Part shown: piece by piece, positions 2,281-19,258 of the stretch
Position numbering within the stretch: the stretch's first letter is position 1
Layout of the letters: every line of letters begins with the position of its first letter
NCBI GenBank assembly: GCA_021771035.1
Contig: JAETPU010000007.1
Span: 7,658 to 71,657 of the forward strand
Direction: 5' to 3'
From: Marvinbryantia formatexigens
GTDB lineage: Bacteria; Bacillota; Clostridia; Oscillospirales; Ruminococcaceae
DNA: 64,000 bases
Program-made: the position numbers and the translations under genes
The notes under the pieces: generated by a model
The model's database searches: none
Seen by the model: the letters and a program-made list of their open reading frames with translations, nothing else
What the model was told of the DNA's origin: nothing

Positions 2281-2299
2281 GTTGCCTGCAAAAAAATAG

Positions 2300-2401: not shown

Positions 2402-2430
2402 TTGATTTTATTTCGATATGGCGCTATAAT
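2402..2430 (+). promoter_or_regulatory. Sigma-A type promoter of the four-gene cassette
   Basis: TTGATT, a 17 nt spacer, then TATAAT. GGGAGAG RBS and the ATG at 2451 follow about 20 nt downstream. Confidence 0.5.
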
Positions 2431-2450
2431 AGGCTTGGGAGAGTGAAAAA

Positions 2451-3734
2451 ATGTTTACCAAGTTTATTTTTCGTAATTTTAAGTCTTTTCGGGATGATAC
2501 CACACTGGATTTGTCTGCGTCTAAAATCACAGAATATGCCGATCATTTATTTGATACCGGCGTTGAAAAGGTTTTACCGACTATCGCTATCTATGGAGCC
2601 AATGCAAGTGGTAAATCCAACGTTTATCAGGCTTTTGAATATATGAGTCAGTATGTTGCAAACTCCTTTAAATTTGGCGGAGATGACGATTTAAATCAAA
2701 AGTCGGATTTTGACTATATGAAACCTACTCCCTTTTTGTTTGATAGCAAAAGCAAAGATCAAGAGTCTTTATTTGAGGTCTACTTCGTAGATACAAGTAG
2801 TGAATCCATAAAATCATATCAATATGGCTTTGCGGTAAATTCCCAGGGTGTCACACGAGAATGGTTGAATCGAAAAGCTAAGACAGCAAGAGCATATAAG
2901 CGAATTTTTTACCGGGATGGCGAAACATTAGATTTAACTGGAATTCCGGCCAAATACCGTGAAAACTTAGAGGTCTCTTTGGAACGAGAGGTTTTGATCT
3001 CATCCTTAGGAGCAAAGCTGAAAATCCCTAAACTCAAATTTATTAGAGATTGGTTTTTACAAAATGAATTTGCGGATTTCGGGGACCCTGCTGAAAGCTT
3101 CTTTATGTCTCGGTTTTTGCCTGCGGGCTTCGTTGATAGCCAAGAAGTACAGGATAACATTGTAAAATTCTTTACTGCCTTTGATGACTCCATCAAGGGA
3201 TTCCATATAGAAAAGGTTGCTTCCTCTGATTCTGATAAAAAGGAAGAGCACTACACGATAGACGCTATTCACTCCATGATTGATTCGGATGAAACAGCAT
3301 CCATTCCCCTGCGTTTGGAATCTGACGGAACGCTGAAAATGTTTGCATTGTATCCGGTTCTACAAGAGGTGTTAGAACGTGGCAGCGTATTGTTTATAGA
3401 CGAACTTAATGCAAGACTACATCCTTTGCTTGTAAAAAACTTTATTCATACTTTTTTGACTCCTGAATTAAACCCACATAGGGCGCAATTGGTTTTTACG
3501 ACCCATGATACATGGCAGTTATCTACTGACATCCTCAGACGTGATGAAATTTATTTTACACAGAAGGATAAGCAGGGAATTTCGCATTTATATTCATTGG
3601 CAGATTGTGTTGACGAAGATGGAATTAAAATCCGGAAGGATGAAAATTTTGAGAAGAACTATTTGAATGGGAAGTATGAGGGAATACCATGCATCCGAGA
3701 GTTTCACATTACCGAACTTAGTAAAGATAGTTAA
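2451..3734 (+). CDS. ABC/SMC-like AAA ATPase (AAA_15/AAA_21-type), cassette gene 1
   Basis: 427 aa. Walker A GANASGKS, signature-like ESDGTLKM, Walker B VLFIDELNARLHP, H-loop FTTHD. Same ATPase class as Septu PtuA, PARIS AriA and AbiL-like proteins (class-level statement only). Confidence 0.85.
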   Translation: MFTKFIFRNFKSFRDDTTLDLSASKITEYADHLFDTGVEKVLPTIAIYGANASGKSNVYQAFEYMSQYVANSFKFGGDDDLNQKSDFDYMKPTPFLFDSKSKDQESLFEVYFVDTSSESIKSYQYGFAVNSQGVTREWLNRKAKTARAYKRIFYRDGETLDLTGIPAKYRENLEVSLEREVLISSLGAKLKIPKLKFIRDWFLQNEFADFGDPAESFFMSRFLPAGFVDSQEVQDNIVKFFTAFDDSIKGFHIEKVASSDSDKKEEHYTIDAIHSMIDSDETASIPLRLESDGTLKMFALYPVLQEVLERGSVLFIDELNARLHPLLVKNFIHTFLTPELNPHRAQLVFTTHDTWQLSTDILRRDEIYFTQKDKQGISHLYSLADCVDEDGIKIRKDENFEKNYLNGKYEGIPCIREFHITELSKDS

Positions 3735-3808
3735 TGGATCCATATTATTGATCCGATTTTAAAATAGTTAAATTAAACCTTGTGTAAATAGAAAGGAAAG
3801 GTATAGTT

Positions 3809-4741
3809 ATGAAATTAAAAGCGTTGAGTCATTATGATGGCGATATGGACACAAGATTTGGGGATTGTATCCTTCTATATGATTCTAATACCCTTATTGT
3901 ATACGATTGTGGTCACACTAAGCATTCAGAAACAATAAAATCATTCTTGCAATCTACTCCATCAGTTTCTCAGATACATATTGTGATTTCCCATAACGAC
4001 AGCGATCACACAGATGGTGTAATAGATTTGCTTGATTATTTGAACGATAACAATTACAACACGTCGGTATACTCATCCTTATATCTAAAGCATACAAAAG
4101 AAGTCATGGAGTTACTTGATGATGATAGAAGAACCAAATCGGCGACCAAGGAACACATTCTGGAAAATTTTGATAATATCGCAGAAATCATTGAAAAAGC
4201 TGAGGACTATTCCTTTACTATCGTAGATGCAACGGTTGATACAACTGTTGCTTCCGCAAAAATTGTGGGACCAACAGAAGAAGAATTCGTAGCAGTAGTT
4301 GCCCAAGCAATTAAAGATGATACCGTCACCCAAATTGAAGGAGAAACGGTTATGAATGCAGCCAGCATTCAGCTAAAATCTACATTAACTGATGAAAAGG
4401 TGGTTTTGCTATGCGGAGATGCCTCTCCGTCATATTTGCACGATCTTGACAGCTACGATATTATACAGTTACCACATCACGGCCAGTTAGATGATGCTAA
4501 AGCTATTTTTCAAGAACTCGGTGATTCCGCATATAGAAAGACATTTCTAATCTCAGATAATACTGGATCTGCTGGAAATAGTGGTGGTTCAGTTAAGCTA
4601 AAGAGTTATATGCAAGAAGAATATTATACGGCTGCGCTGAACACTCAGGATGGAGTAATTGAATTGCCTGATGATGTTAGTAGCCACATCGGGATTCAAA
4701 CGCAAAGGAGAACTTATTACGGTGATTTGGGTAGTATCTAA
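3809..4741 (+). CDS. Metallo-beta-lactamase-fold hydrolase, ComEC/Rec2-like motif order, variant metal motif; cassette gene 2
   Basis: 310 aa. Motif order is GDCILL..VYDCGH, then ISHNDSDHTDG (at the HxHxDH position but reading H-N-D-S-D-H), then LLCGDAS, then LPHHGQ. GAAAGGAAAGG RBS upstream. Confidence 0.7.
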   Translation: MKLKALSHYDGDMDTRFGDCILLYDSNTLIVYDCGHTKHSETIKSFLQSTPSVSQIHIVISHNDSDHTDGVIDLLDYLNDNNYNTSVYSSLYLKHTKEVMELLDDDRRTKSATKEHILENFDNIAEIIEKAEDYSFTIVDATVDTTVASAKIVGPTEEEFVAVVAQAIKDDTVTQIEGETVMNAASIQLKSTLTDEKVVLLCGDASPSYLHDLDSYDIIQLPHHGQLDDAKAIFQELGDSAYRKTFLISDNTGSAGNSGGSVKLKSYMQEEYYTAALNTQDGVIELPDDVSSHIGIQTQRRTYYGDLGSI

Positions 4742-5237
4742 ATCTATCTGCAGCTCTTCAGAAGAGTTGGATTGTAGACGCCAGTATATTAGGGATGTAA
4801 CAAAAGCTGAAGTGTCTTGTTGGTCAGAATCAAATTGTGAATATAAACGGTTTGGCCTTAAACGAACTTGTGCTTTTTATGTTTGCCAGTCTAAAAAGGG
4901 TGAGTATGGAATGATAATAACTGCACATATTCACGAAATAGGGGCCATATTTGAAAGTATAGCATCCAGAAAACGTGCTATAGTTGTTATTAACTCCTGT
5001 GAGATCGAAAAGACTATTTCAAGTGTATTTTTGTCCATAGTAAGGCAAAAGAACAATTCTTCTGAATTGTTCTATGCATACCAAGAAAGAGAGAGCCACG
5101 GGCTACTTGTCAATTATGCTGACAACCTTGGAACTTTTGGTTTCAGCACCACCCTATCTGAACGGATGCTATTTAGGCAAAGGCACGAGGGCTTTATAAA
5201 GGCTATTAGGAATTCATTCCAAAAGGTGGTGCCATAA
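4722..5237 (+). CDS. Hypothetical Cys-rich protein, cassette gene 3 (start uncertain; GTG 4722 preferred, ATG near 4912 possible)
   Basis: The frame stays open through AT-rich DNA from 4659. AAGGAG lies 11 nt before GTG 4722, overlapping the MBL gene by 20 nt. The N-terminus has six Cys (CSSSEELDC...CWSESNC...CAFYVC). No family recognised. Confidence 0.45.
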   Translation: MIWVVSKSICSSSEELDCRRQYIRDVTKAEVSCWSESNCEYKRFGLKRTCAFYVCQSKKGEYGMIITAHIHEIGAIFESIASRKRAIVVINSCEIEKTISSVFLSIVRQKNNSSELFYAYQERESHGLLVNYADNLGTFGFSTTLSERMLFRQRHEGFIKAIRNSFQKVVP

Positions 5238-5761
5238 TGAATCAAATACTGGAAAAATTAGGTTCATATCAAATTTTAACCAACCTTTTGCCAGGAGCTT
5301 TCTTTGGCGTAAGTCTTAAATTTTTCTTTGGCATAAATATTTCAACTGAGAATTTTGGAGAAGATATTCTGATATACTATTTAATCGGATTGATTATCAA
5401 TCGCGTTGGTGCATTAATCACAGAACCTTTTTTGAAGAAAATTCGTTTTATAAAATTCGCACCATACGCAGAATTTGTGCAAGCACTAAAAAGTGATTCA
5501 AAGATAGATATATTATCAGAAATCAATAATCTTTTTCGTTCTATATTAACTTGTATCGTGTTATTACCTTTAGCAAGACTTGGGCAAGTACTATCTTTAA
5601 ATTGGTTGTGGTTTTCTAAAAACTGGAAATGGTTTGTCATAATTTTTATTTTAGTTTTGTTTTTATTTGCATATCGACAACAGAGCAGCTACATCTGTAA
5701 ACGAGTAATGATAAGCAATAACAAGACTAAAGAGGGCAAGAGTGCCACGAAAAATAATTAA
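5237..5761 (+). CDS. Hypothetical membrane protein (about 4 TM segments), cassette gene 4
   Basis: 174 aa. The ATG overlaps the preceding TAA by 1 nt (TAATG). Hydrophobic stretches: ILTNLLPGAFFGVSLKFFFGI, ILIYYLIGLIINRVGALI, ILTCIVLLPLARLGQVL, WFVIIFILVLFLFAY. Confidence 0.6.
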   Translation: MNQILEKLGSYQILTNLLPGAFFGVSLKFFFGINISTENFGEDILIYYLIGLIINRVGALITEPFLKKIRFIKFAPYAEFVQALKSDSKIDILSEINNLFRSILTCIVLLPLARLGQVLSLNWLWFSKNWKWFVIIFILVLFLFAYRQQSSYICKRVMISNNKTKEGKSATKNN

Positions 5762-6071
5762 ATAAATTTGAATGTGAAAATTTTATTGTTGATGGTCATT
5801 TGAAAGGGGTATCTAAACCGTTCGCCCCTTCCATGTCGGGGCAAAGTTCGCTTTGCTCCGACTTATTTTTTGTCTGCAACAGAAAATAAATCCTCCGCCC
5901 GCTTCCTTGCGCCTCCTCTTACGCAAAAAGTCACGCTGGGCTCACCTGTTCGGTTGTAAACGCCCTCACGACGGCTCACTGTCGCTGCGAACTTTTTGCG
6001 GGTTCGCGAGGGTTCAAATCCACCTTTGAAAAAATATCAGAGGTTCTGTTTGTCTCACCCTGCCATATGTT

Positions 6072-6117: not shown

Positions 6118-6645
6118 TCCGATAGATATGATGACGTTCGCTTCACGCAAGAGCGGGACGGGCGTCAAAGCGATGTCCAACCAAAACGGCTGTATTGGGG
6201 TAAGGGAGAATCTTTGGCATCATGGGGAGGACAGCGCCGGTATTCTTTCAGCAGAGCCGGCATACAGTCCGGGGCTGCTGGGCAAATCCCGGGTAGTATA
6301 GCTTTTTTCTATAGCAAGTTATGAATTCTAAGTATTTGCTATTTGTATGGTACAGACGTATACTGAAGTTAAAAGAACAGGAACGGTATCCGCTGTACTG
6401 TGGGAAACCGGAAAAAGGCAGGGCTCAACGGTGGCTGTCCTGGTTGGGGTTTATAGCTCTGCCAATACCGTGGTGGGGCAGCCTCTATTCTTGGCTGCCG
6501 CGGCGAATGCTGTCCCGGCGGGAATCTGGAAATACGCGGTTTGGCGGCGTGCAGGGTTTATTCTATGATTGGAAAGCCCGGGCTCCTATCTTAGTGCACG
6601 GTGAAAAAACAGCTGCCAAACAGTGAATGGGGGAGAAAGGAAAAG

Positions 6646-6877
6646 ATGCGAAATTCACCCTCGGCTCAGGCGCTCCTTGAGAATTTGCGGGATGCGGGAT
6701 GCGGGATGCGGTTCCGGCCTGGTGGAGAGATTTTTAACTCTTGAGGAAAGCAACGATGTAAAAGGCCAGCTGGACCTGCTGTGTGCGCATCGGGAACAGC
6801 TTATAAAAAGGGTGCATCGGGAGGAAGCGAAAATTTGCTGCCTGGATTATTTGACATACCAGCTGAAGAAAAAATAA
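6646..6877 (+). pseudogene. Small conserved-looking protein (LRDAGC...LVERFL...CLDYLxY motif) split by a frameshift inside a 7-bp tandem repeat
   Basis: ATG 6646 has a strong GGGGGAGAAAGG RBS and encodes MRNSPSAQALLENLRDAGCG, then stops at 6744. The +1 frame continues as RDAGCGSGLVERFLTLEESNDVKGQLDLLCAHREQLIKRVHREEAKICCLDYLTYQLKKK to 6877. Removing one GCGGGAT unit joins both halves. Confidence 0.5.
6687..6711. repeat. GCGGGAT x3.6 tandem repeat
   Basis: Read directly: gcgggat gcgggat gcgggat gcgg. Confidence 0.95.
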
Positions 6878-6912
6878 ACCACAACTGAAAGGAAATAAAG
6901 GAGGAAAGCGCA

Positions 6913-7785
6913 ATGACTGCTTATGAAAATCAGACCTTCGATATGGAGAGGGCGCTTTATGGGATGCATGGGCTTACCGTGCGGGATTGTGCGTTTGACG
7001 GCCCGGCTGACGGGGAAAGCGCTTTCAAAGAGTGCGGGGATGTTCAGGTGGATCGCTGCTATTTCAATCTGCGCTATCCCTTCTGGCACGATCACAAACT
7101 GACAATCCGCAATTCCCAGATGACGGAACTCTGCCGGGCCGCCCTGTGGTATTCCCATGATATTGAGATTGCGGATACCAAGCTTTACGGCATCAAGGCC
7201 CTGCGGGAGTGCAGCCAGGTGAAGATGCGGGGATGTGAACTCATCTCTGCGGAATTCGGATGGTCTGTACAGGATTTGGAGATGGAGGACTGTACGGCTC
7301 AGAGCGAATATTTTATGATGCGCGCCGCGCGTCTGCGGTTTAAAAATGTACAGCTGAAGGGGAAGTATTCCTTTCAGTATATTCAAGATTCTGTTTTTGA
7401 AAACTGCGTTTTTGATACGAAGGATGCCTTCTGGCACGCCAAAAACGTGTTGGTCCGGGACAGCGTAGTCAAAGGGGAATACCTGGCCTGGTATTGTGAG
7501 AATGTCACCTTCGAGCGCTGTAAGATCATCGGGACACAGCCTCTGTGCTACTGCAAGGGACTCAGGCTCATCGACTGCGAAATGGAGGGGGCGGATTTCG
7601 CGTTTGAAAAAAGCGAGGTTCAGGCCACGGTCACCACTCCGGTCATCAGCATTAAAAATCCCAGTTCCGGTTGTATCACGGTTCCCGCGGTGGGTGAAAT
7701 AATCCGGGATGACTGCAACGCCAAGGGCGAAGTGATAGTCAATGGGCAGCCGGCAGACAACGGAGCTTCCGGCGCCTGCGCATAA
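6913..7785 (+). CDS. Parallel beta-helix-like repeat protein, probably DUF3737 family
   Basis: 290 aa. AAGGAGGAAAG RBS. Repetitive C/F/W-containing approximately 22-aa turns (RDCAFDG, VDRCYFN, IRNSQM, MRGCELI, FENCVFD, FERCKII, LIDCEME). The DUF3737 assignment is from memory of the family and needs an HMM check. Confidence 0.6.
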   Translation: MTAYENQTFDMERALYGMHGLTVRDCAFDGPADGESAFKECGDVQVDRCYFNLRYPFWHDHKLTIRNSQMTELCRAALWYSHDIEIADTKLYGIKALRECSQVKMRGCELISAEFGWSVQDLEMEDCTAQSEYFMMRAARLRFKNVQLKGKYSFQYIQDSVFENCVFDTKDAFWHAKNVLVRDSVVKGEYLAWYCENVTFERCKIIGTQPLCYCKGLRLIDCEMEGADFAFEKSEVQATVTTPVISIKNPSSGCITVPAVGEIIRDDCNAKGEVIVNGQPADNGASGACA

Positions 7786-7884
7786 ACGGCGTAAAACGAG
7801 AGTTCCGAACTTGCCGGGCGGGAGCATACCGCCCTGTGGGGATGGCCGGATGCGGATGACGCAAAGGGAAAGGAAGGGGCAGGA

Positions 7885-8490
7885 TTGAAACGATTCTTTG
7901 CGGCGGCGCTAGGCGTTCTGCTGTCGCTGTGCCTGGCCGCCTGTTCGGGAACTCAGGGGCGGCACAAGGCGCCTTTTGATTCAATGCCGTGCACCCAGGG
8001 AGAGGACAGCGGAATTTCCGTGCCGGTTTCCCAGGGGAACGCCGCCCAGCAGGACTGCCGGACGCCCGGCGGGACCTCACAGGGGCAAACCATTACAAAC
8101 CAGGCGCCGGAGGAGCCGGCAAAAACGGAGGACGCCGCGGTGAAACTCAACATTCAAGTTGGACCAAGGCTCTTTTCCGCCGTTTTGGAGGACAATGCGG
8201 CGGCGCGTGCGTTTGCCGGGATGCTGCGGGAAGCGCCGTTGGTTCTGCAGATGCGGGAGTATTCCGGATTTGAGAAGGTGGGCTCCCTGGGCAGAAGCCT
8301 TCCCGCCAGTGATCGCCGTACTACTGCTCAACCGGGCGATATCGTTCTTTATAACGGCGACCAAATTGTTTTATTGTATGGCTCCAATTCCTGGAACTAT
8401 ACAAGGCTTGGCACAGTCGAGAGCCTGTCCGGATGGGAGGAAGCCCTCGGCAGCGGGGATGTGAGCGTAACCTTTTGGGCTGCGGACTGA
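7885..8490 (+). CDS. Lipoprotein with C-terminal cyclophilin-like domain
   Basis: TTG start after a GGAAAGGAAGGGG RBS. Lipobox LSLCLAAC-SG. The C-terminal approximately 115 aa (VKLNIQVG..FSAVLEDNAAARAF...GDIVLYNGDQIVLLYG...YTRLG) matches the cyclophilin-like small-domain family pattern. Confidence 0.7.
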   Translation: MKRFFAAALGVLLSLCLAACSGTQGRHKAPFDSMPCTQGEDSGISVPVSQGNAAQQDCRTPGGTSQGQTITNQAPEEPAKTEDAAVKLNIQVGPRLFSAVLEDNAAARAFAGMLREAPLVLQMREYSGFEKVGSLGRSLPASDRRTTAQPGDIVLYNGDQIVLLYGSNSWNYTRLGTVESLSGWEEALGSGDVSVTFWAAD

Positions 8491-8665
8491 TCGCCTGATG
8501 CGTTGAGGCTGTCGTGAACCGCCGGCCGCGGGCGAGTCTGGGAGGGATACTGTATTGCGTCTGCTGTCTGCGAACACCGGCGATTGCTGTATAAACTGTA
8601 TGGCTTGCATAATTATTTAGAGTATATTGATAGAATTTGTTGACGATGCTGCAATTATATGCTAT
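8391..8665. repeat. Direct repeat copy 1 (3' end of the cyclophilin-like gene plus downstream intergenic/promoter region)
   Basis: Aligns without indels to 17176..17450 at a constant offset of 8785 nt, with about 15 mismatches by hand count. Confidence 0.9.
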
Positions 8666-8668
8666 GGT
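8640..8668 (+). promoter_or_regulatory. Promoter inside repeat copy 1
   Basis: TTGACG, 17 nt spacer, TATGGT. It sits just upstream of the MutS-like pair. The homologous site in copy 2 is TTGACA-17-TATTCT. Confidence 0.4.
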
Positions 8669-8682
8669 TTCTAGCATAGGCG

Positions 8683-10272
8683 GTGGTAAATTTGTCAGTG
8701 AATTCGATTGTTTGGGATAGAGAAACTCACCCCTCGCGTCATGCGGCGGCGGGAGGGACTGAAGCCGATGCGCTCAGGGAATTGGGAATTCCCCAGCTGC
8801 TGTTCAGCCGCAGGGAACTCAGCGATGAGGAAATCCTCGGTTTTCTCAATTGCAAAGGCGGGGATATTGTTCTAAGGCAGGGGGTATTAGAGGAGGCGCT
8901 TCAAAAGGAAGAACTCTCCTCGATTTTTGACGCTCTCCTTCAAAGTATCAGCAAAATAAAACGCTATCTTAAAGAATACAGCATCAAAGATCAGGAAAAA
9001 ATCGTATGCTTCCAGGCCCTGTACCTGCTATTGAGGGAATATGTGCAGATTATTGGGCAGTCCAGAGAACGCTTAGAGTCCGCCGGTGTGAAAAGCCGGG
9101 GGCTGACTAGGCTTTTACACCTATTTAAGGAGTTGTGGGACAGCCAGAATCTCAATGCGCTGCAGGAGAGTTTGTCCCATATCGGGGAGTACTGGAATCC
9201 TCCCAAGATATGTGAATTCGGCCTGAATATTGATTCCGGCTTTCATATCAAGGAAATCACCGTCACCAAGCTGTTCCCGCAGCGGGAATTTGCCGAATCC
9301 GCCTGCTTTTCCAGGCCGACCTATCTGCACAGGGGAACGTCCACCGCCAAACTGCAGTACTACTATTTTAAAAAGCTCAAGAGCCTGCTCAATACAGAGC
9401 TTGGCAGATTGCAGCGGGATCTGAAACCGTTTTCTCCCGAGCTGGTATCGGCGCTGCTGCAGCTGGAGCGGGAATTCACTCTGTATTCGGCGGGGATCCG
9501 TTGGTGCCAAAAGATTCAGCGCAAAAACGCCGTTTTTTGCTTTCCAGCCGTTTCACAGCATACTATCCGATGCCGTGGCATGGCCCTTCCCGAAACAGTG
9601 GAGGCTTTGGAGACTGCGGACAGATACACCGTCGATTTGAAAGACGGGGAAACTGTCTGCATCGTTACGGGGGCGGGCAGCGCCTATAAGGATGGATTTG
9701 CGGCGGCGCTTGGGGCAAACCAGGTGTTGTTTCAGCTGGGGTTCCCGGTGTGCGCCTCAGAGGCGGCCCTTCCGGTTCGGGAGCGTGTATTTACTATTTT
9801 CGCCCAGGGAGAGAGCGAGGACGAGTCCCGGTTCGCCCGGGAGGCCAGATTGACTGCTCAAATTGAGCGGTGCGGCGGGGAAAGCCTTGTTTTGCTCCGG
9901 GATGCCTATACCTCCACCAATGCCCGGGAGGGGGAGAAAATCGCCGCCGAATTGATTGAGGCTGTCACAAAAACCGGAAGCATCGTGGTGTGCTCCACCC
10001 ATTTTGCGAAGCTGGTGTCAGCCCTTGCGGACAAAAACATCCCCTGCGCCAGCTATGTGGCGGCTTCGGGAACGCAGGAGGATGGCTGCGTTGGGAATAT
10101 GCTTCTTCGCGGGGAGCCCTATGCGCTCAGTTATGCCAGGCAGCTTGCCCAAAAGCACAGTTTCACCGTTGAGGCTATCCTGGAAATCCTCAAATCCAAG
10201 GATATGAGCGCAGAGACCAGCGCGAGGCTGCTCAGGGAACTGGCCCTGGCTGAGGAAGGGGGCGCGTTGTGA
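8683..10272 (+). CDS. MutS-domain-V-like protein with degenerate P-loop (start codon uncertain)
   Basis: 529 aa. The C-terminal region aligns with the next gene's ATPase domain. It reads TGAGSAYKDG where the partner has TGANQGGKTV, LLRDAY at Walker B, and CSTHF at the H-loop position. No mismatch-binding or Smr motifs were seen. Confidence 0.65.
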   Translation: MVNLSVNSIVWDRETHPSRHAAAGGTEADALRELGIPQLLFSRRELSDEEILGFLNCKGGDIVLRQGVLEEALQKEELSSIFDALLQSISKIKRYLKEYSIKDQEKIVCFQALYLLLREYVQIIGQSRERLESAGVKSRGLTRLLHLFKELWDSQNLNALQESLSHIGEYWNPPKICEFGLNIDSGFHIKEITVTKLFPQREFAESACFSRPTYLHRGTSTAKLQYYYFKKLKSLLNTELGRLQRDLKPFSPELVSALLQLEREFTLYSAGIRWCQKIQRKNAVFCFPAVSQHTIRCRGMALPETVEALETADRYTVDLKDGETVCIVTGAGSAYKDGFAAALGANQVLFQLGFPVCASEAALPVRERVFTIFAQGESEDESRFAREARLTAQIERCGGESLVLLRDAYTSTNAREGEKIAAELIEAVTKTGSIVVCSTHFAKLVSALADKNIPCASYVAASGTQEDGCVGNMLLRGEPYALSYARQLAQKHSFTVEAILEILKSKDMSAETSARLLRELALAEEGGAL

Positions 10273-11813
10273 TGGTAAAGACCTCCAAGACCATACTCCA
10301 GGACTTGGAGCTGGATGAAATTATAGATTGGTTTGAGATAAAACTGCCCAATTCGGATGATTATCTATCCTTCCACCGCGCCGCAATTACAGACTACTTA
10401 TCATCGGATCTGGAGATCCTGCGCCAAAGGCAGAAGGCCATTGGGCTTTTGCTGGAAAATGAACCCCTGTGCCAGGCGCTGTACAGCCTGTTGGACTTAC
10501 ATGCGCAGGTACGGCAGCTGAGTTCGAAGCACGGCAGCGATGACAGGGCGTCCATTTCCAATTATATTGATGCGAGACGCCAGGTCCGGTCGCTTTTGCC
10601 CCAACTGCACGGCCTTCTCAATGACACATGGGGAATCCAGGTGTTTGAGCGGCTCAAAGCAGAGCTGGAAGAACTGTTTGAGAGCGGCGCCCTGGACAGG
10701 ATAGACCAGTGGGATAAAACCTATGTGGAACAGGAGCTTGTGCCTAGGAGTATGCGGGTTCTCTTGGCTGTGGACGAATTGTTTTTGATCCGGGAATTTC
10801 AGATCCGGGATTTTTCCCAGGGCACCTATGAGAACACTCTGACTGGATGTGTCTATTCGCTGACAAGGGAGAAGGCGCTGGAAAAGCTGAATGTTTTTTC
10901 CGGCAAGGGGGATCAGATTGTCAATGCGCTGTTTTCCGGGCACCTGCAGGATCCCTATGGCGATAACACGATATTCAATGACGCCCTGGATCAGAATATC
11001 GCGCAGTTTGAACAGGATACCTATCTGTTATTGTCTTCTTGCTTCCGGTTCTTGGAACAGGCAGAGGAGGATATTGTTTTTCTGCTGAAATGTGCGGAGT
11101 TCTGCAGGAAAGCCCAAAGCCTGGGCACGGCGGCTTGCTTTCCAACCCTGTGTGAAACGCGGGACAAGGTGTATGCGGCCAGGGAGGCGTATTCCTTTGC
11201 CCTGGCGGACAGGATGAAAAAAAGAGGATGGAATCTTTCAGACACGCTGGTGAAAAATCCAGTTGAGTTCGACCGGCCCAATTCGGCGCTGGTGGTGACT
11301 GGCGCCAACCAGGGTGGAAAAACCGTATACCTGCAAACCATTGGGATGATTCAGTTTCTCGCACAGCTGGGGGTAATGGTTCCCGCCAGCCAGGCACAGG
11401 TGAGCCCTGTGGATGCCATTGTCACGATTTTTGCCGGTCAGGAGGAGAAACTGGGCCAGGGCCAGCTGTCCGCTGAGTTTGATTTGCTGCTGCAATCCCT
11501 GCGCCAGGCCAACGGGAATTCCCTGATTCTGCTCAACGAGATTTTTACGCTCTGCGATCCCCAGGATGGTGTGCTCTTCAGCCGCCAGGCCCTTTATGCC
11601 CTGATGGCGATGGGGGCAAGAAGCGTGTGGGTTACGCATCTCTTTGAACTGGCGCTTCCGCTTGAGGAAGGCGATCCCATCACCAGCCTGGTGATGGCGG
11701 TCACAGACCAGGATCACCGCCCTGTCTACCGAATCCGGCGCTCTCCCCCGGACTATCGGAGCTATGCCGCGGAGTCCATTAAAAGCTTTCAGAATCAGGA
11801 ACGCCCGGTTTGA
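10269..11813 (+). CDS. MutS family protein (domain V ABC ATPase only)
   Basis: 514 aa. Overlaps the upstream stop (GTGATG). Walker A GANQGGKT and QTIGMIQFLAQLG..VPA as in MutS/MutS2. Walker B reads LILLNEIF (Asn in place of Asp). WVTHLFEL H-loop. Confidence 0.8.
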   Translation: MMVKTSKTILQDLELDEIIDWFEIKLPNSDDYLSFHRAAITDYLSSDLEILRQRQKAIGLLLENEPLCQALYSLLDLHAQVRQLSSKHGSDDRASISNYIDARRQVRSLLPQLHGLLNDTWGIQVFERLKAELEELFESGALDRIDQWDKTYVEQELVPRSMRVLLAVDELFLIREFQIRDFSQGTYENTLTGCVYSLTREKALEKLNVFSGKGDQIVNALFSGHLQDPYGDNTIFNDALDQNIAQFEQDTYLLLSSCFRFLEQAEEDIVFLLKCAEFCRKAQSLGTAACFPTLCETRDKVYAAREAYSFALADRMKKRGWNLSDTLVKNPVEFDRPNSALVVTGANQGGKTVYLQTIGMIQFLAQLGVMVPASQAQVSPVDAIVTIFAGQEEKLGQGQLSAEFDLLLQSLRQANGNSLILLNEIFTLCDPQDGVLFSRQALYALMAMGARSVWVTHLFELALPLEEGDPITSLVMAVTDQDHRPVYRIRRSPPDYRSYAAESIKSFQNQERPV

Positions 11814-11846
11814 GAAAACCGGGCGTTCCTGATTCTGGTTTGTTTT
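11790..11846. terminator. Strong intrinsic terminator between convergent genes
   Basis: Perfect 22-bp stem CAGAATCAGGAACGCCCGGTTT / AAACCGGGCGTTCCTGATTCTG with a GAGA loop, then GTTTGTTTT. Confidence 0.85.
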
Positions 11847-11981
11847 CGGAGAGTTTGGCTTGGGGATTAAACCGGAAGCCGACGTAGCAGCACAGCGATG
11901 GCGGTGGGATAATCAGGTGGGAAAGGGCGGGCACGGCAACCCTCATAGCCCCGTCTGGTATCTGCACACGGGGAATTTTGC

Positions 11982-12953
11982 CTACAGGATGCCCGCGGTT
12001 CGCCAGCGGATCGACTCGACCCAATCCAACGCGGCATCTTTCAGCCGTTTGGGCTGCGGCGTAAAAAATTCCAGGGTAGGCTCTCCCTTCTTGATGTTCC
12101 ATAAACCGGCAACCTGCCCGTTTACGGCTATGGTGGGCAGGCAGATTCCCGATTTCATAATTACCGCGCGTTTATATTCCGGCGGCAGAACGGCGCTGCG
12201 CTCTGTGTAGGATACGAGTACCGGATCAAAACCGGACAGCAGGGTTAACTCGGGGATTTCACCCATGTTGGCTCCGTCCTCCACATAGTAATAGGTAGAG
12301 CCCCCATATTCCAAACGTGCATATTCGTCCAGGTTGATTTGGGCAAGCAGCTTCTTGTCCTCTTTGCGAAGCCCGAAGAACCATACGGCGTCGGCAAGGG
12401 TAGCTGGACCGTAAGCGGAGAAATACCGGCTCAGCAGGCTGGGCAGCACCTCCTTTGGCGTCTGAGTGGGCTCGGCGCTGATGAGATCAAAATCGCGGCT
12501 GGTCATATCCCGAAACGCCACCAGCCCTTTTTGTGCCAGTCCTACGAAAACGCCGCCCCATGGGCTGAAGGCCCTCTCGATGAACCCGTGGTCATACCGA
12601 TCGGCGAACAAGTGCCGGAACTGGGCGCGGGAAAACACGCCGTCCTCCATAGCACGCAGTACCTCCAGTTCAAAATCGCTGAGCGGCTCACGGTTTGCGT
12701 GCAGGGTCAACAGGTCCGGCAGGTCCTCATAGACTACCCCATGCAGGGCATGGTGAACCCAGGTTTTGGTCAATGCCGTTTTCCAGCCCGAGATATTTGC
12801 ACCCCGGATAAGGGCGGAGAACACCACATTCCGGTGAAACCAGCAGTGCAGCCCGAGAAGCTCGTGGGAAAGCTGCGTGATGTCCTCGCATTGACGGGAT
12901 AAATATAGCCCGTGCATCCGCCTTTGCAGAATTTGCTCCGTTATTTTATCCAT
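11982..12953 (-). CDS. Winged-helix DNA-binding protein, AlkZ/YcaQ-like (HTH_42) DNA glycosylase family
   Basis: 323 aa. GGAGGAAAGG RBS. The length and C-terminal pattern (...GFDPVLVSY...VNGQVAGLWNIKKGEPTLEFF) are typical of the family. The N-terminal region reads GLHCW where AlkZ/YcaQ proteins carry the Q-x-Q or Q-x-D catalytic motif (alignment by eye, uncertain). Confidence 0.65.
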   Translation of the reverse strand: MDKITEQILQRRMHGLYLSRQCEDITQLSHELLGLHCWFHRNVVFSALIRGANISGWKTALTKTWVHHALHGVVYEDLPDLLTLHANREPLSDFELEVLRAMEDGVFSRAQFRHLFADRYDHGFIERAFSPWGGVFVGLAQKGLVAFRDMTSRDFDLISAEPTQTPKEVLPSLLSRYFSAYGPATLADAVWFFGLRKEDKKLLAQINLDEYARLEYGGSTYYYVEDGANMGEIPELTLLSGFDPVLVSYTERSAVLPPEYKRAVIMKSGICLPTIAVNGQVAGLWNIKKGEPTLEFFTPQPKRLKDAALDWVESIRWRTAGIL

Positions 12954-13338
12954 AACAGCCTTTCCTCCAAAATCATTCCATGTTTTTTTCTGTGCCGATT
13001 TGCCCGGCGAACAGCCCGCTTCCGTGTGTGACGGGATCAGTCATGAATATAAGCCGCGTGATGGACACTGGGGAACGCTTGCCTCTTCCGCAGGAGCCCG
13101 CTATTCTGTTGATAGCCCCGGGCCCTTGCGTGCGGGCCCGCTCGGGCAGGAGCCGGGGTTCGGATGTCTCAAGTATACACCAAAATTACGGCTGAAACAA
13201 TTTTTATGGATACAAAGAGGCGAGAGGCAAATGTTTTTCCCCAATAGGATGGAGCGAAGGGACTGCTGGCGGGACACAGCGTTTTTGATGGGCTGCCGCA
13301 GTCCGGTAAAAACCCGGCAGGCCTCACAGAATGACCGC

Positions 13339-13367
13339 TTGACGTATGTATGAGAACCCGGTATAAT
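13339..13367 (+). promoter_or_regulatory. Near-consensus sigma-A promoter inside the 1.16 kb non-coding gap
   Basis: TTGACG, exactly 17 nt, TATAAT. The next credible start codon on this strand is 14114, about 745 nt away. Confidence 0.55.
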
Positions 13368-14113
13368 GAAAAATATTCGTCGCTAACCAGAAGGACTGTG
13401 GGCATGACAGGCTGCGGACAGGGATGCAGCCGTAGTCATAACTTATGCAGGCGGCGAAAATAGAGATAGAAGCGGAAGATTACCCCCATTTCATCCGAAA
13501 TGGGGGCTGTTGGCTTCTCAAAAAATGAATGAGACGGCTGTTCTTTATGACTCAATATTCCGGGTATTTGTGGGGCGTTTTCCACGGAATACACGGGTTT
13601 TGCCATGTCCGGCCGGATTTGCGGGGGATTTCGCATGAAAAGACGGTGGATTTGCCCTGCTGTTGGCTTCGGAGTTCGGAGAGCGGGTTAAGCGGGGATT
13701 AGCGTCGCCACTAAAGGACCAGAGGACAGGCCAGGCACAAAATTCGCAGGCATTGGAAAATTGAGGATGATGGTTCGCAGTGCTGCGTCTGGCTGAAACG
13801 GCCCTTCCGGGGGTTAGGCTTGCCGCGATTCATGGTACGCGTGGAGTGCTTGTACGGCCGTTGTGAAAGGCAGTCAAAGAGCGGGCCTGCTGAACTTTAA
13901 GGGGGCGCTCTGCTTGCTTGGAAGGGAAAGCCGCCTTAACAGATACTGTATATTGCGCACCGGTTTTGCTGTAAGGCTGAAAATCTGTATATTTAACGGA
14001 GGTTTCTCAGGCCTGTGCAAAATAGATGCTGCTATAAAAATTAGAGTAGGTGGGAGGTACAGCTGTCGGGATTATGAATCGTTGGATGTGAATGTGCAAT
14101 AGGAGAACAGACT

Positions 14114-15088
14114 ATGATTGAGTTTGAAGGTATCAGTAAGACCTATCGTGTGGCAAAACGCCAGGCTGGCTTCGGAAATGCTGTCAAGGCGTTGTTTTCC
14201 CGGGAATATGAGCTTGTGAATGCCTTGAATAACGTCAGTTTCACCATCAGGGACGGTGAAATGGTGGGGTATATCGGCCCCAATGGGGCAGGCAAAAGTA
14301 CGACCATCAAGGTGATGTGCGGCGTTCTCACCCCGGACAGCGGCAGCTGCGTCATCAACGGACGGGTTCCCTGGAAGGAGCGTATCGCCCATGTCAGGGA
14401 AATCGGCGTCGTATTTGGGCAGCGCAGCCAGCTGTGGTGGGATGTGCCGGTAATCGACAGCTTTGATCTCATCCGCGATATGTACAAAATTGAGGAGGCA
14501 TCCTATCGGGGCAATTTAAGCGAGCTCACCGAGCTTTTGGATTTAAAGGAGCTGCTGAAAACCCCTACGCGCAACCTGAGCCTGGGCCAGCGGATGCGCT
14601 GCGAGATAGCGGCCTCTCTGCTGCACAATCCCAAAATTCTGTTTTTGGACGAGCCCACTATCGGCTTGGACGCGGTGTCAAAGCTCTCTGTGCGGCAGTT
14701 TATTCAGCGGCTCAATACCCAGCGCGGCACCACGGTGATTCTCACTACCCATGATATGCAGGATATTGAGGCACTTACCCAGCGCATTCTGCTGATTGGC
14801 AAGGGCAGAATCCTTCTGGACGGCGATCTGGAGCAGCTCAAGCGTCAGGTCTCCCAGCGCAGGACCTTGACGGTGTCCTACCGGGGAAAGCCTCCCGCTT
14901 TAACTGCGGGGATGCGGGTGGAGCAGCACAGGGAGGGCCGTATGGTGGTGTCGCTGGATCCGGCGGTTCTGCCGGTGTCGCAGGCCATTGCTGCCCTTGC
15001 CGCGCAGACAGAGCTTTTAGACATCTCGGTTTCCGAAATATCCACCGAGGAGATGGTGGCGGCCCTGTATCGGGAGTACCGCATATGA
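14114..15088 (+). CDS. ABC transporter ATP-binding protein (ABC-2 type system)
   Basis: Walker A GPNGAGKST, signature LSLGQRMR, Walker B ILFLDEPTIGLD, H-loop TTHDM. AGGAGAACAG RBS. Confidence 0.92.
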   Translation: MIEFEGISKTYRVAKRQAGFGNAVKALFSREYELVNALNNVSFTIRDGEMVGYIGPNGAGKSTTIKVMCGVLTPDSGSCVINGRVPWKERIAHVREIGVVFGQRSQLWWDVPVIDSFDLIRDMYKIEEASYRGNLSELTELLDLKELLKTPTRNLSLGQRMRCEIAASLLHNPKILFLDEPTIGLDAVSKLSVRQFIQRLNTQRGTTVILTTHDMQDIEALTQRILLIGKGRILLDGDLEQLKRQVSQRRTLTVSYRGKPPALTAGMRVEQHREGRMVVSLDPAVLPVSQAIAALAAQTELLDISVSEISTEEMVAALYREYRI

Positions 15089-15888
15089 AAAAGTATTTTT
15101 CCGTGTTCCGGATCCGCTTTATCAATGGCCTGCAATACCGTGCGGTGCTGTTTTTTACTCTCGCCGCGCGGTTTGCCTGGGGATTCATGGAGGTGCTGGC
15201 CTATACGGCGCTGTACCGCTCCGGGTATGCGGGGGCTTCCATGGAATATTCCCAGACGGTATCCTATATGTGGATGCAGCAGGTGCTGTTTGTCCTGTTT
15301 TCCGTGGTGTTTTCCGACGGTGATATCTACTCTGCCATCGGCAGCGGCTCCATTGCCTACGAAATGGTGCGCCCGATGGATTTATATGGGCGCTGGTTCT
15401 GCCAGTCCGCCGCCAACCGTGTGTCCTTTACACTGATAAACGCCCTGCCGGTGCTGGTTGTGGCCTGTATCATCCCGCAGCCGTACCGGATGACTCTCCC
15501 TGTAGGGGCCGGGCAGTTTGGACTGTTTCTCGTATCGATGGTGCTGGCGTTGGGGGTTACCGTCGCTTTTGCTATGCTGATGTATGTTTCCCTGTTCTAT
15601 ACGCTCTCCCAGCGGGGTGTCCGGATTATTGTCACGGCGGTGACATCTTTTCTCTCGGGTGGTGTGATCCCGCTTCCGTTTTTCCCGGCCCAGGTGCTGG
15701 CTGTGGTGGAACTGCTGCCCTTTGCAGCCATGCAGAATATGCCTCTTCGTATTTATTCCGGAAACATTGCTGGGTCTTCCGCCGTGTACGGGGTTTTATT
15801 CCAGCTGTTTTGGCTGGTGGTGCTGGTGTTTTTGGGCCGGCTGTGGATGGGCCGCGCCCAGAAAAAAGTAATTGTCCAGGGCGGATAG
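15085..15888 (+). CDS. ABC-2 family transporter permease
   Basis: 267 aa, 6 hydrophobic segments. The start overlaps the ATPase stop (ATGA). Confidence 0.8.
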   Translation: MKKYFSVFRIRFINGLQYRAVLFFTLAARFAWGFMEVLAYTALYRSGYAGASMEYSQTVSYMWMQQVLFVLFSVVFSDGDIYSAIGSGSIAYEMVRPMDLYGRWFCQSAANRVSFTLINALPVLVVACIIPQPYRMTLPVGAGQFGLFLVSMVLALGVTVAFAMLMYVSLFYTLSQRGVRIIVTAVTSFLSGGVIPLPFFPAQVLAVVELLPFAAMQNMPLRIYSGNIAGSSAVYGVLFQLFWLVVLVFLGRLWMGRAQKKVIVQGG

Positions 15889-16237
15889 CCGAATCACAAC
15901 AGTGGATAAACCGAGAAAGGGGAAGGGCGCAAAGGAGCCTCATCGCAGTGATTCGTGTGTTCCCGCCATATCTCATGGGTCTGCTGAGCGCGCCGCCGCA
16001 GGGGACGCCGGCTTCCCATGATGAAACCGCGTGTTTTCCTGGCAGCGGCCCCGAAGCGGCGGACGATACCATCCCTTGCGGGATTGCCGATAGTTTGCAC
16101 GGTTCCCCCCAATGGGCCAAAAGGGGGAGCGTACAGCGTGCGGCAGTTCCCTGCCCGAGCTGTGCTGAAATTCCGGTTCAGGAAGAAGGGGGCGTCCCTC
16201 AAAACCTCATTGGGCCCGTAAACCGGGCCGGAAAGGA

Positions 16238-17026
16238 ATGATTGCTGCCATGCGGCTGTATTTCAGTTATATCGCAATCAATCTGAAAAGCCAGATGCAG
16301 TATAAGATGTCCTTCTTTTTAACTGCGCTTGGCCAGTTTATCACGGCATTTACCTCGTTTTTCGGACTATATTTCATCTTTTCCCGAATAAGCGCTGTAG
16401 ATGACTTTACCTTTGGGCAGGTGCTTCTGTGCTTTGCTGTTGTGATGATGGCCTTTTCCTTAGGAGAAATGCTGGGAGGAAGCTTCTCAGTATTTCCAAG
16501 GCTTCTGGGCAATGGGGAATTTGACCGGGCCCTGGTGAGGCCCAGAAGCGTCATTCTGCAGGTTTTATTCCCGCACATGGACTTTGCGCGTATCGGTATC
16601 ACGGCTCAGGCGGTTTTAGTACTGTGTTATGCCATTCCTCTCAGCGGAGTTATCTGGTCCTGGCAGAAAATTCTCACGCTGGCGCTGATGATCCTGTGCG
16701 GGAGCGCTTTGTTTTTCGGACTCTTTCTCCTGCAGGCGGCATTCTGCTTTTTCACGGTGGAGGATCTGAGCTTTCTGAACCTGTTCACCTACGGTTCCCG
16801 CCAGTTTGGACGGTACCCGTTCTCGGTGTATGGCAAGGGGGTGCTTCACATCCTGACGTTTATCATTCCGCTGGCGTTGTTTCAGTATTACCCGCTGCTG
16901 TATCTTCTGGATAGGGAACACAGTCCCTTTTATATGCTGCTGCCTCTGGCAGCACTCCTGTTTTTACTCCCCTGCTACGCTTTGTTTCGCTTTGGCATGA
17001 GCCGGTATAAGTCTGTCGGTTCCTAG
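16238..17026 (+). CDS. ABC-2 family transporter permease (second subunit)
   Basis: 262 aa polytopic membrane protein with the same architecture as the preceding permease. GGAAAGGA RBS. Confidence 0.8.
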   Translation: MIAAMRLYFSYIAINLKSQMQYKMSFFLTALGQFITAFTSFFGLYFIFSRISAVDDFTFGQVLLCFAVVMMAFSLGEMLGGSFSVFPRLLGNGEFDRALVRPRSVILQVLFPHMDFARIGITAQAVLVLCYAIPLSGVIWSWQKILTLALMILCGSALFFGLFLLQAAFCFFTVEDLSFLNLFTYGSRQFGRYPFSVYGKGVLHILTFIIPLALFQYYPLLYLLDREHSPFYMLLPLAALLFLLPCYALFRFGMSRYKSVGS

Positions 17027-17076
17027 CGTATGCTTGATGCTGGATGCTGGGCCCAGAGGATCGGTTTATGTGAAAA

Positions 17077-17111
17077 ACGGAGCCTTACAGTTTCTGTAAG
17101 GCTCCGTTTTG
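17077..17111 (+). terminator. Intrinsic terminator after the ABC-2 operon
   Basis: ACGGAGCCTTACAG / CTGTAAGGCTCCGT stem with a TTTC loop, then TTTTG. Confidence 0.8.
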
Positions 17112-17175
17112 CTGTCGTGGGAAAGGCGGGAAAAATCCGCCGTTTGAACCGGGGCTGCATGATGCGGCCCAAACC

Positions 17176-17450
17176 CTGGAGCTATACAAGGCTTGGCACA
17201 GTCGAGAGCCTGTCCGGATGGGAGGAAGCCCTCAGCAGTGGGGATGTGAGCGTAACCTTTTGGGCTGCGGACTGATCGCTTGATGCGTTGAGGCTGTCGT
17301 GAACCGCCGGCCGCGGGCGAGTCTGAGCGGGATACTGTATTGGGTTTGCTGTCTGCGAACACCGGCGATTGCTGTATAAACTGTATGATTTGCATAATTG
17401 TTTATAGTATATTGATAGAATTTGTTGACAATGCTGCGATTATGTGCTAT
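17176..17450. repeat. Direct repeat copy 2 (truncated 3' end of a cyclophilin-like gene plus promoter region)
   Basis: Encodes only ...SYTRLGTVESLSGWEEALSSGDVSVTFWAAD, with no upstream body of the gene. About 94-95% identical to 8391..8665. Confidence 0.9.
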
Positions 17451-17453
17451 TCT
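17425..17453 (+). promoter_or_regulatory. Promoter inside repeat copy 2
   Basis: TTGACA, 17 nt spacer, TATTCT, about 200 nt upstream of the solute-binding protein gene. Confidence 0.45.
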
Positions 17454-17650
17454 GGGTATGCTATCAAATGTTTTGTGAATTTGTACCTGAATTGTGAATC
17501 AATAATACATAGAAGTGACGATGGGAGAATAGGATTTGAACATATGATGTCCGCAGGCGGTATCGGCTGTGTCAGGGGAAGACAGATAGTGTATTTGCGG
17601 GTTACCTCTAGGTTATCATACACAACAACTGAAGGAGGAATGGATGAACT

Positions 17651-19258
17651 ATGAAAAAACGTGCAGTCAGCGGTTTTTTGGCACTGACGATGCTGGGCTC
17701 ACTGGTCGTTGGATGCCAAAAGGACACGGGAGCAAACACAAGCTCCGGGGCCGCAGCCCCGGTACCGGATTACGACTCAGGGGAATTGTATGCCCAGGCA
17801 AAGTTCAGCGAGGAACCTATCTATCCCACCTATATGCTCCGGACAAACGAGACCTTTACCGAGGAAACCCTGGCCTATCAGTGGATTGGCGAGATTACAA
17901 ACATCTATTTTAAACCCATACCGGTGCCGTTAGCCTCCTATGATGAAAAGCTCAGCGCGATCATTGCTTCGGGGGATATCCCGGATTATCAGGCTCTGCG
18001 CAGTTCCATGGTTGCCAAACAATACGGGCCCAACGGCGTGTTTGTCAATCTGTCTGAACGCATAGAGAGCGGCCAGATGCCCAATTTGAAGCAGCGCCTG
18101 GACGAGGGGCCCGACGACGCCTATGTGGTGTTAAAGGCTCCGGACGGGCAGATTTACGGCGCTCCCAGAATTTACACCTATGATATGCTCCATGAGACCT
18201 TCATGATGAGAACGGATCTGATGAAGGAGTGGGGATATCCGGAGCGGTTCGAAACCTTTGACGAGCTGCACGAATTTTTAAAGGAATGCAAAGAAAAATA
18301 TCCGGACTCCACTCCGCTTGGCAGCCGCTGGGGCGTTCAGCATGCATTTAATGGCTTTGGAGAGATGTTTGACGGCCTTATCGATTTGGCCTATCTGGAT
18401 CCCATCGATAAAACGACCTGGAAAATAGGCCCCTTTACCGATGGCTTTGAGGAAATGATCACATACATGAATACGCTGTATTCTGAGGGCATTTTGGATC
18501 CGGAATGGACCACCTGTTCTGACGAACAGTGGAAGGAGAGAATCCTCAACGATAAATTCATGCTCACCTATGACTATATGTCCAGCTGCGATGAGCTTGA
18601 GAGTTCCGGTAAAACCAGGAATCCCTCCTTTGAGTTCCGCCCTGTCATTCCGCCAGCAGCAGGAGGCAGAATGAAGATGGGAGTTGCCGACACTTCCCAC
18701 CGGATCTACCAGTGTCTGAAGGCAATCAGCACCAAATCCCAATATGTTGAAGAACTGGTCCGCTTTACCGACTGGACCTATTCCAAAGAGGGCTCCGATG
18801 TTCTCAACTATGGAAAAGCCGGGGAAACCTTCACGTATGACGCAAACGGAAAGGTTGTTTTGGACGCGGATGTAAAGACCATACATAACCTGAACGGCTC
18901 CGTCGACCTGGGGAAAATCGGCGTTGCGGCGGAATGGACCTCGATTGAGCCGGAGGAGATGGAGCAGCTGAAAAACCTGGGCCCCAACACCATCGCGGCC
19001 CAGAAAAAATTCCGCGAGGAAGGCGCTGTCCTGGCTTCTCAGCCTTCGCTTACCTTTGACGAGGAAACCCTGGCCCGCAAAAATGATCTGTCCGGCCCGC
19101 TTACCACGTATCGGGATGAGATGATGGTCCGCTTTACTACCGGCGACGAGCCGCTGAGCAATTTTGATAAGTTCCGTGAAACCCTCAAGAGCATGGGCGT
19201 TGAGGAGCTGCTGGAAATTTACAAGAAGACCTATGATCAGCAGATGGCCATGAAATAA
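17651..19258 (+). CDS. Extracellular solute-binding lipoprotein (large family-1 ABC SBP); no cognate permeases adjacent
   Basis: 535 aa. GAAGGAGGAA RBS. Lipobox LVVGC-QKD. The size and W/Y/D-rich pattern are typical of LplA/YtcQ-like sugar-binding proteins. Confidence 0.8.
   Translation: MKKRAVSGFLALTMLGSLVVGCQKDTGANTSSGAAAPVPDYDSGELYAQAKFSEEPIYPTYMLRTNETFTEETLAYQWIGEITNIYFKPIPVPLASYDEKLSAIIASGDIPDYQALRSSMVAKQYGPNGVFVNLSERIESGQMPNLKQRLDEGPDDAYVVLKAPDGQIYGAPRIYTYDMLHETFMMRTDLMKEWGYPERFETFDELHEFLKECKEKYPDSTPLGSRWGVQHAFNGFGEMFDGLIDLAYLDPIDKTTWKIGPFTDGFEEMITYMNTLYSEGILDPEWTTCSDEQWKERILNDKFMLTYDYMSSCDELESSGKTRNPSFEFRPVIPPAAGGRMKMGVADTSHRIYQCLKAISTKSQYVEELVRFTDWTYSKEGSDVLNYGKAGETFTYDANGKVVLDADVKTIHNLNGSVDLGKIGVAAEWTSIEPEEMEQLKNLGPNTIAAQKKFREEGAVLASQPSLTFDEETLARKNDLSGPLTTYRDEMMVRFTTGDEPLSNFDKFRETLKSMGVEELLEIYKKTYDQQMAMK

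Follow-up and report, generated by a model that had tools for sequence, protein, structure and literature searches.

Which came first, the genes or the repeats that bracket them? The question is raised by a stretch of 64,000 nucleotides (NCBI GenBank assembly GCA_021771035.1, filed under Marvinbryantia formatexigens; contig JAETPU010000007.1, positions 7,658 to 71,657 of the forward strand), hereafter the window, in which two similar direct repeats, R1 and R2, flank an 8.5-kb block of genes for MutS-like ATPases, an AlkZ-like glycosylase and an ABC-2 exporter. On the left R1 includes the 3' end of a lipoprotein gene, and on the right R2 stands before the gene for a solute-binding lipoprotein (SBP). 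The original prediction, made from the sequence of the window, was that lipoprotein gene, promoter and SBP gene once lay side by side and that an 8.8-kb accessory block was inserted between them with duplication of the junction. Comparison with other strains leads us to another history, to which we give a probability of roughly 70%: the block is ancestral, R2 arose in one clone through microhomology-mediated replacement of the segment native to the upstream region of the SBP gene, and the resulting repeats enable recombination across the block. The features on which the argument turns are the following.

7885-8490, forward strand: Cyclophil_like2 lipoprotein gene (Pfam, 4e-25), the 3' end of which is duplicated.
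8384-8665, forward strand: R1, the source copy, made up of the last 31 codons and stop of the lipoprotein gene and then 175 nt of intergenic sequence reaching into the -10 element of the MutS operon.
17169-17450, forward strand: R2, the derived copy, with the lipoprotein gene tail and the promoter.
17184-17445, forward strand: the unambiguous core of R2 (262 nt), standing where other strains have a 111-nt native segment upstream of the SBP gene.
17651-19258, forward strand: the orphan SBP gene, behind R2.

A repeat search of the window returned R1 and R2 as a single two-copy family of 282 nt at 94% identity. MAFFT and BLAST concur on an ungapped alignment at an offset of 8785 nt with 17 mismatches and 0 gaps, in which the longest identical runs are 52, 45, 41 and 40 bp. 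The limits first proposed (8391-8665 and 17176-17450, about 15 mismatches and no indels) were close, since exactly 15 mismatches fall within them and the repeat search moves the left ends to 8384 and 17169. Also as predicted, the lipoprotein gene ends inside R1, its genuine 3' end, whereas R2 has no gene body; its coding remnant is only ...SYTRLGTVESLSGWEEALSSGDVSVTFWAAD and the stop, the same 31 codons with two amino-acid changes. No third copy exists within the window, either in the repeat search or by the count of a 23-mer from the repeat (exactly 2 matches vs. 0 expected). The repeat has no match in plasmids, viral contigs or JGI metagenomes, and on these grounds we reject a dispersed or mobile sequence; a multi-copy dispersed element was what the prediction had named as its own possible undoing.

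Contigs of the same uncultured gut Oscillospiraceae species, retrieved by exact-protein look-ups, differ in what stands before the SBP gene. The arrangement of the window (state A: R1, block, R2, SBP gene) occurs only in contigs from several studies that are essentially identical to it, meaning that the kilobases aligned differ at a few positions at most (e.g., L008/L012, L009, and L014). Another seven contigs have R1 and the complete block without R2 (state B: L007, L013, L017, L030, L031, L033, and L034); they represent six distinct strains, L033 and L034 being identical over the locus, and these strains are 0.6-2.4% apart. In state B, the sequence at window positions 17184-17445 is replaced by an unrelated 111-nt segment, Px, which is unlike the repeat and unlike every other part of the window. 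That Px might be a decayed older copy of the repeat is ruled out by local and global alignment scores no better than those of shuffled sequences.

State B is ancestral, and R2 is secondary and specific to the clone. Midpoint-rooted neighbour-joining trees built from the shared sequence place the window within the state-B strains for every partition tried, and R2 has an evident source (R1) in the same genome where Px has none. The block is core to the species and older than R2, not an accessory insertion; it is present in every strain whose contig spans the locus, and its MutS part is found in a sister species as well. The sister species contig (L026), found through a MutS2 protein 77% identical to that of the window, has the order DUF3737, lipoprotein, MutS1, MutS2, and its DNA aligns continuously with window positions 8583-8800 with 68% identity on the left side and 71% on the right side of the boundary between R1 and block (8665/8666). 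In all strains, too, R1 passes into MutS1 without a break. The R1-block junction is therefore old. A search of JGI metagenomes with an alignment of MutS2 did not find the sister species, and more distant relatives are uninformative for rooting, as their lipoprotein homologs (about 60% amino acid identity) keep the DUF3737 neighbor and have other genes downstream.

These comparisons bear directly on the full island model, that is, an ancestral lipoprotein-promoter-SBP order into which an 8.8-kb accessory island was inserted with duplication of the target junction. Many islands do integrate in gene 3' ends, leaving direct repeats (attL/attR) that include the gene end and bracket a multigene segment, and recombination between such repeats yields an empty site and a circle; one contig discussed below (L010) resembles that empty site. 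At this locus, however, the seven state-B contigs carry the block without a second repeat, and in the sister species the promoter is contiguous with MutS1. Pfam, NCBIfam and PADLOC scans of all open reading frames detected no recombinase or transposase in 8666-17168, and the block has host-like GC content (53-56%, against 50-57% in the flanks). The repeats are 94% and not 100% identical, and they far exceed a typical att core in length. We thus find none of the marks of an integrative island, be it an integrase, repeats in all carriers with single-site noncarriers, or foreign composition and patchiness. A natural empty site, in which the lipoprotein gene runs directly to the SBP gene, was not found among the contigs examined; L010 alone has that order, and its repeat is a hybrid of both window copies on flanks identical to those of the window, hence derived rather than ancestral. 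We regard the full island model as highly improbable, and the accessory-island history is refuted in its general form, a version confined to the last step surviving as a rival that we take up below. A composite transposon or other element bounded by insertion sequences was also rejected, there being no transposase domains and the repeats being direct and consisting of a gene tail plus a promoter. This illustrates a general hazard, in that direct repeats with a gene 3' end on either side of a group of genes mimic the att sites of an island, yet here the bracketed genes predate the repeat.

If the block was there first, how did R2 arrive? The contigs show the ancestral layout, which runs DUF3737, lipoprotein, promoter and the two MutS-like genes, AlkZ-like gene, ABC-2 exporter, terminator-like hairpins, Px, leader, and SBP gene. 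Three-way comparison of R1, R2 and the repeat-free strains places the two novel junctions of the clone at short shared sequences.

17175-17183, forward strand: left junction microhomology CCTGGAGCT (9 nt), common to the native block end and R1.
17446-17450, forward strand: right junction microhomology GCTAT (5 nt), inside the -10 element, common to the end of the repeat (8661-8665) and the end of Px.

On the left, the native block end reads ...CCCAAACCCTGGAGCT and continues with GCC, and R1 reads ...CCAATTCCTGGA(A/G)CT and continues with ATAC. The counterpart in the R1 of the window (8390-8398) is CCTGGAACT; the R1 alleles of L030-L032 have CCTGGAGCT itself, against which the 9 nt match perfectly. 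On the right, the repeat ends in ...TGCTAT and Px in ...GGCTAT. Because both novel junctions show microhomology, we infer a recombinase-free illegitimate event, in which, judging from the junctions, about 276 bp of lipoprotein 3' end and promoter would have taken the place of Px in the lineage of the clone. The microhomologies are accompanied by a source copy, R1, lying 8.8 kb upstream and by the replaced segment, Px, still kept in six strains. The event could have been a double template switch within one genome, or a homology-facilitated illegitimate recombination whose donor DNA came from a lineage that already had the repeat next to the SBP leader.

R2 differs from the R1 now in the window at 17 sites. 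Two of the 17 lie at the ragged left edge, nine are found in the R1 alleles of other strains, and six are private to R2. As R1 alleles differ mutually at up to 22 sites, R2 falls inside the diversity of the species. Of the two amino-acid changes in its coding remnant, N to S at the left edge also occurs in P0148, and no lipoprotein allele with G to S was found among the cluster members. The R1 of the window may itself be a later arrival: positions 6254-9250, which include R1, match L007 at 100% identity, against a difference of about 1.5% in the remainder of the block, so that R1 has probably been exchanged by homologous recombination between strains since the duplication.

The replacement would have changed what precedes the SBP gene. 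A promoter scan found near-identical sites at the right end of each repeat, each with a TG before the -10 element.

8640-8668, forward strand: promoter-like site of the MutS-like operon, TTGACG-17-TATGGT; its -10 element straddles the boundary between R1 and block.
17425-17453, forward strand: duplicated promoter-like site upstream of the SBP gene, TTGACA-17-TATTCT.
17451-17650, forward strand: SBP leader, with 11 substitutions private to the window, seven of them in 17451-17481.

Both of the predicted -35/-10 pairs are thus present, and the predicted sharing of a promoter between the MutS-like pair and the SBP gene is matched by the motifs that precede them. The SBP-side site of the R2-bearing allele agrees with the sigma-70 consensus at 10 of 12 positions and has an extended -10 element. 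In the sister species both hexamers and the spacing of 17 nt are preserved (TTGACA-17-TATGGT); given that its DNA aligns continuously across the boundary between R1 and block with this promoter conserved, the promoter within the repeat is natively that of the MutS operon. The scan found no -35/-10 pair in Px, and at the matching position the repeat-free strain L007 has only TATACT, with no -35 element at 16-18 nt. We therefore infer from these motifs that the SBP gene has exchanged an upstream region lacking a recognizable -35/-10 pair for a copy, close to consensus, of the promoter of the MutS operon, by which its expression has probably been raised and coupled to the MutS-like operon. The SBP leader does not fold better than shuffled sequences (z = +1.7), and Rfam returned only terminator look-alikes in the leader or block, both at the gathering threshold and at E<=1. 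Homology between the MutS leader and the SBP leader was considered and dropped, 174 of 1000 shuffles scoring as well.

The original prediction further held that the block could be lost again by recombination between the repeats. RecA-type unequal or intramolecular recombination between R1 and R2 would give a deletion, a circle or a tandem duplication of the 8.5-kb block, and 94% identity with runs of the lengths given above is enough for such recombination. Two contigs look like its products. L010, from SRR13008589, joins the lipoprotein gene to the SBP gene through a repeat that is R1-like up to 8495 and R2-like from 8541, with flanks 100% identical to the window, and is the very junction that the prediction called for. 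L015, from the sample behind ERZ28630881, joins the ABC-2 permease gene to MutS1 through a repeat that is R2-like at its edge and R1-like from 8449. Each shows a single switch, within 8496-8540 in L010 (the 45-bp run) and within 8397-8448 in L015 (the 52-bp run), and is otherwise identical to the window. Taken together they are suggestive, although not proof, of the two reciprocal products of recombination between R1 and R2, a deletion on the one side and a circle or tandem duplication on the other; loss of the block thereby gains tentative support at the level of contigs. Many samples contain the repeat-bearing clone intact, and deletion of the block is therefore rare or selected against.

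Several observations weigh against our account. R2 is not a fresh copy of the R1 now in the window, from which it differs at 17 sites, and the account requires that R1 was replaced afterwards; the identity of 6254-9250 with L007 fits such a replacement. A simple intragenomic copy does not predict the 11 private substitutions of the leader, seven of which fall in its first 31 nt. The sister species is known from a single contig that ends before the SBP region. Both hybrid contigs are imperfect witnesses, L015 being a scaffold interrupted by an N gap and with one fragment inverted, and L010 a 2-kb contig assembled at k=31 in which no 31-mer spans the neighboring diagnostic sites at the switch, so that a chimeric path is possible.

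These last points invite the view that metagenome assembly, and not biology, produced the repeat or the hybrid junctions. Besides the N gap and the inverted fragment, this view can draw on where the two switches lie: they fall in the longest stretches without a mismatch, of 45 and 52 bp, which are also those that de Bruijn graphs with k=31-51 collapse. R2 itself is nevertheless not an assembly artefact of the window, because assemblies made independently contain it together with the variants private to it (L008/L012, L002-L006, and L014), and short-read contigs terminate precisely at the limits of the 31-mers common to R1 and R2 (the start of L002-L006 is at 17358, and L014 spans 8573-17211). 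L010 crosses several potential branch points unbroken at which contigs from sister samples break; this speaks for a real junction and implies that its sample lacked the alternative branches. We consider an assembly origin of repeat or hybrid junctions somewhat unlikely.

The divergent leader is the ground for a second rival. Substitutions private to the window number four in the 3 kb to the left of R2, seven in 17451-17481 (six of them transitions), four in 17482-17650, and five in the first 1 kb of the SBP gene, which amounts to 5.5% for the leader, 0.13% for the left side and 0.5% for the right. The state-B strains compared are identical across 17451-17481, and the window's type of leader occurs nowhere but beside R2. 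R2 together with the first part of the leader thus looks like one haplotype with a separate history, and the cluster is a hint that it was imported from a block-less lineage, as yet unsampled, whose repeat abutted the SBP leader; database searches found neither such a donor nor any block-less lineage with an R2-type repeat.

Such a haplotype would be explained if that junction had been brought into a genome that had the block, or if the ancestor of the clone had lost the block and regained it from a block-bearing strain, duplicating the junction. On this re-acquisition scenario, a deletion between the two GCTAT motifs gave lipoprotein, repeat, leader, and SBP gene in an unsampled lineage, and the block came back by homologous crossing-over on the upstream side and by illegitimate joining at CCTGGAGCT within the recipient's own lipoprotein 3' end. 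It would account for the contiguity of R2 and leader, their excess of private substitutions (mostly transitions), the restriction of this leader type to R2, and the microhomology at both junctions, and the 100% identity of 6254-9250 (left flank, R1, and the start of the block) to repeat-free L007 is what recent donor DNA would look like. Against it stand the failure to find the block-less lineage, the sole block-less contig, L010, having a hybrid repeat between flanks identical to the window; the adjoining SBP gene on the right, which at 0.5% private substitutions is not unusually divergent; the need for two rare illegitimate events; and a deep ancestry that still has the block in place. We judge re-acquisition unlikely; were it true, the insertion with junction duplication first proposed would be correct for the last step only.

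Our preferred history, duplication of the lipoprotein tail and promoter onto an ancestral block, has a further possible consequence. The duplication may have turned an integrase-free chromosomal module into a naturally switching cassette that is excised, circularized or amplified in gut populations via the 282-bp repeats. This idea is quite unlikely on present evidence, but it would imply copy-number heterogeneity of a module (AlkZ-like glycosylase, DrrA-like exporter, and MutS-like pair) that looks like a defence against DNA-damaging compounds, with the orphan SBP gene keeping a strong promoter in every state.

Each element of this history has parallels. RecA-independent slipped or template-switch events, including patches of the fork stalling and template switching (FoSTeS) or microhomology-mediated break-induced replication (MMBIR) type, are a known form of microhomology-mediated illegitimate recombination. 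The resemblance lies in a copy from the same replicon, microhomologies of 5-9 nt, the lack of a recombinase or target-site duplication, and the replacement of resident sequence; unlike a plain case of this kind, R2 is not identical to the present R1, a cluster of substitutions adjoins the right junction, and the event is read from sequence comparison. Homology-facilitated illegitimate recombination reportedly occurs in naturally transformable bacteria, in work of 2002 attributed to de Vries and Wackernagel and to Prudhomme et al. One end would there be a homologous anchor (the SBP leader or the upstream flank) and the other a microhomology, and a divergent tract lies beside what would be that anchor, but no donor lineage was found for our locus.

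Repeat-mediated deletion and tandem amplification result from unequal RecA-dependent recombination between direct repeats. As in such systems, 8.5 kb lie between repeats of 282 bp that are identical over as much as 52 bp at a time, and reciprocal hybrid junctions appear in contigs; at 6% divergence, however, mismatch repair should suppress exchange, and the evidence here is at the contig level only. The apparent gain by one gene of the promoter of another operon through a small segmental duplication resembles promoter capture, with the difference that the same duplication also created a deletion-prone architecture. The term homology-facilitated illegitimate recombination, used above, follows its use in the literature (PMC6382021).

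The event is thus of an ordinary and known kind, a microhomology-mediated duplication with promoter capture, unusually well documented by population data, and it does not challenge current understanding. Its interest lies in the contigs of a single species, which show the locus before and after the event and, it appears, both products of recombination. A promoter would have moved without the machinery of a mobile element, and by the same event a core gene block would have been destabilized.

The block itself comprises the following genes.

8683/8692-10272 and 10269/10272-11813, forward strand: two overlapping genes (MutS1 and MutS2) for ATPases with only MutS domain V.
11982-12953, reverse strand: AlkZ-like DNA glycosylase gene (domain search), convergent to the MutS-like pair.
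14114-15088, forward strand: DrrA-like ABC ATPase (domain search).
15085-15888, forward strand: ABC-2 permease.
15948-16241, forward strand: open reading frame of 97 amino acids.
16238-17026, forward strand: ABC2_membrane_6 permease.

Glycosylases of the AlkZ/YcaQ family unhook interstrand crosslinks and confer self-resistance to genotoxic natural products (PMC7367128; bioRxiv 10.1101/2021.10.29.466481), and by analogy the pairing of an AlkZ-like glycosylase with a DrrA-like exporter suggests protection against DNA-damaging compounds. Membership of the block in a recognized defence system was not borne out, PADLOC giving generic ABC ATPase matches only. The MutS-domain-V-only pair (8683-11813) is rare, with nine matches at E<=1e-20 in a search of 5.8 billion proteins; besides the query's own cluster only P0122 (77%) exceeds 36% identity, and there is weak similarity to KamC-type reactivase ATPases. 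Selection seems to be uneven across the block, since MutS-like genes are frameshifted in several strains (MutS1 in L033/L034 and in L016, MutS2 in L013) while the AlkZ-like and ABC proteins remain 99-100% conserved; the 97-amino-acid reading frame is frameshifted in L031. The lipoprotein of the sister species contig (2456-3064) is only 24% identical to that of the window (7885-8490), compared with 77% for MutS2, and this gene has been either replaced or subject to very fast evolution.

Within the block, 12954-14113 is a gene-free stretch of 1.15 kb with no Pfam or Rfam match, compatible with a long leader as well as with a decayed gene. No promoter-like site in the region matches better than the one it contains at 13339-13367 (TTGACG-17-TATAAT), some 750 nt ahead of the gene for the ABC ATPase. 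A terminator-like hairpin (17079-17111) follows the final permease gene; its loop is TTT in the window and L013 and AAA in the other strains, having flipped within a perfect palindrome.

The SBP gene has no permease partners at this locus and is followed by DUF1622, a GFO/IDH/MocA oxidoreductase gene, and recA. Its homologs at 58-65% identity sit directly behind two BPD_transp_1 permease genes; because of these permease-permease-SBP operons, we read the copy here as an orphan relocated to the neighborhood of recA. An apparent frameshift of the SBP gene in L008/L012 proved to be a scaffold N gap and not a mutation.

Elsewhere in the window, positions 1-5830 are a foreign element of low GC content (37-48%) about 6 kb upstream of the block and separate from it, absent from L007 and L017, with the following genes.

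637-2280: large serine recombinase.
2451-3734: AAA_21/AbiEii-like ATPase.
3809-4741: MBL-fold protein.

In L033 and L034 this place, upstream of DUF3737, is taken by another insertion that carries a resolvase, and with different recombinase-bearing insertions there in the window and in these contigs the spot looks like an integration hot spot. Between recX and a radical-SAM gene lies a tandem repeat with a period of about 122 nt (23508-23922), the copy number of which varies, as L012, otherwise of the same clone, is without 23580-23824.

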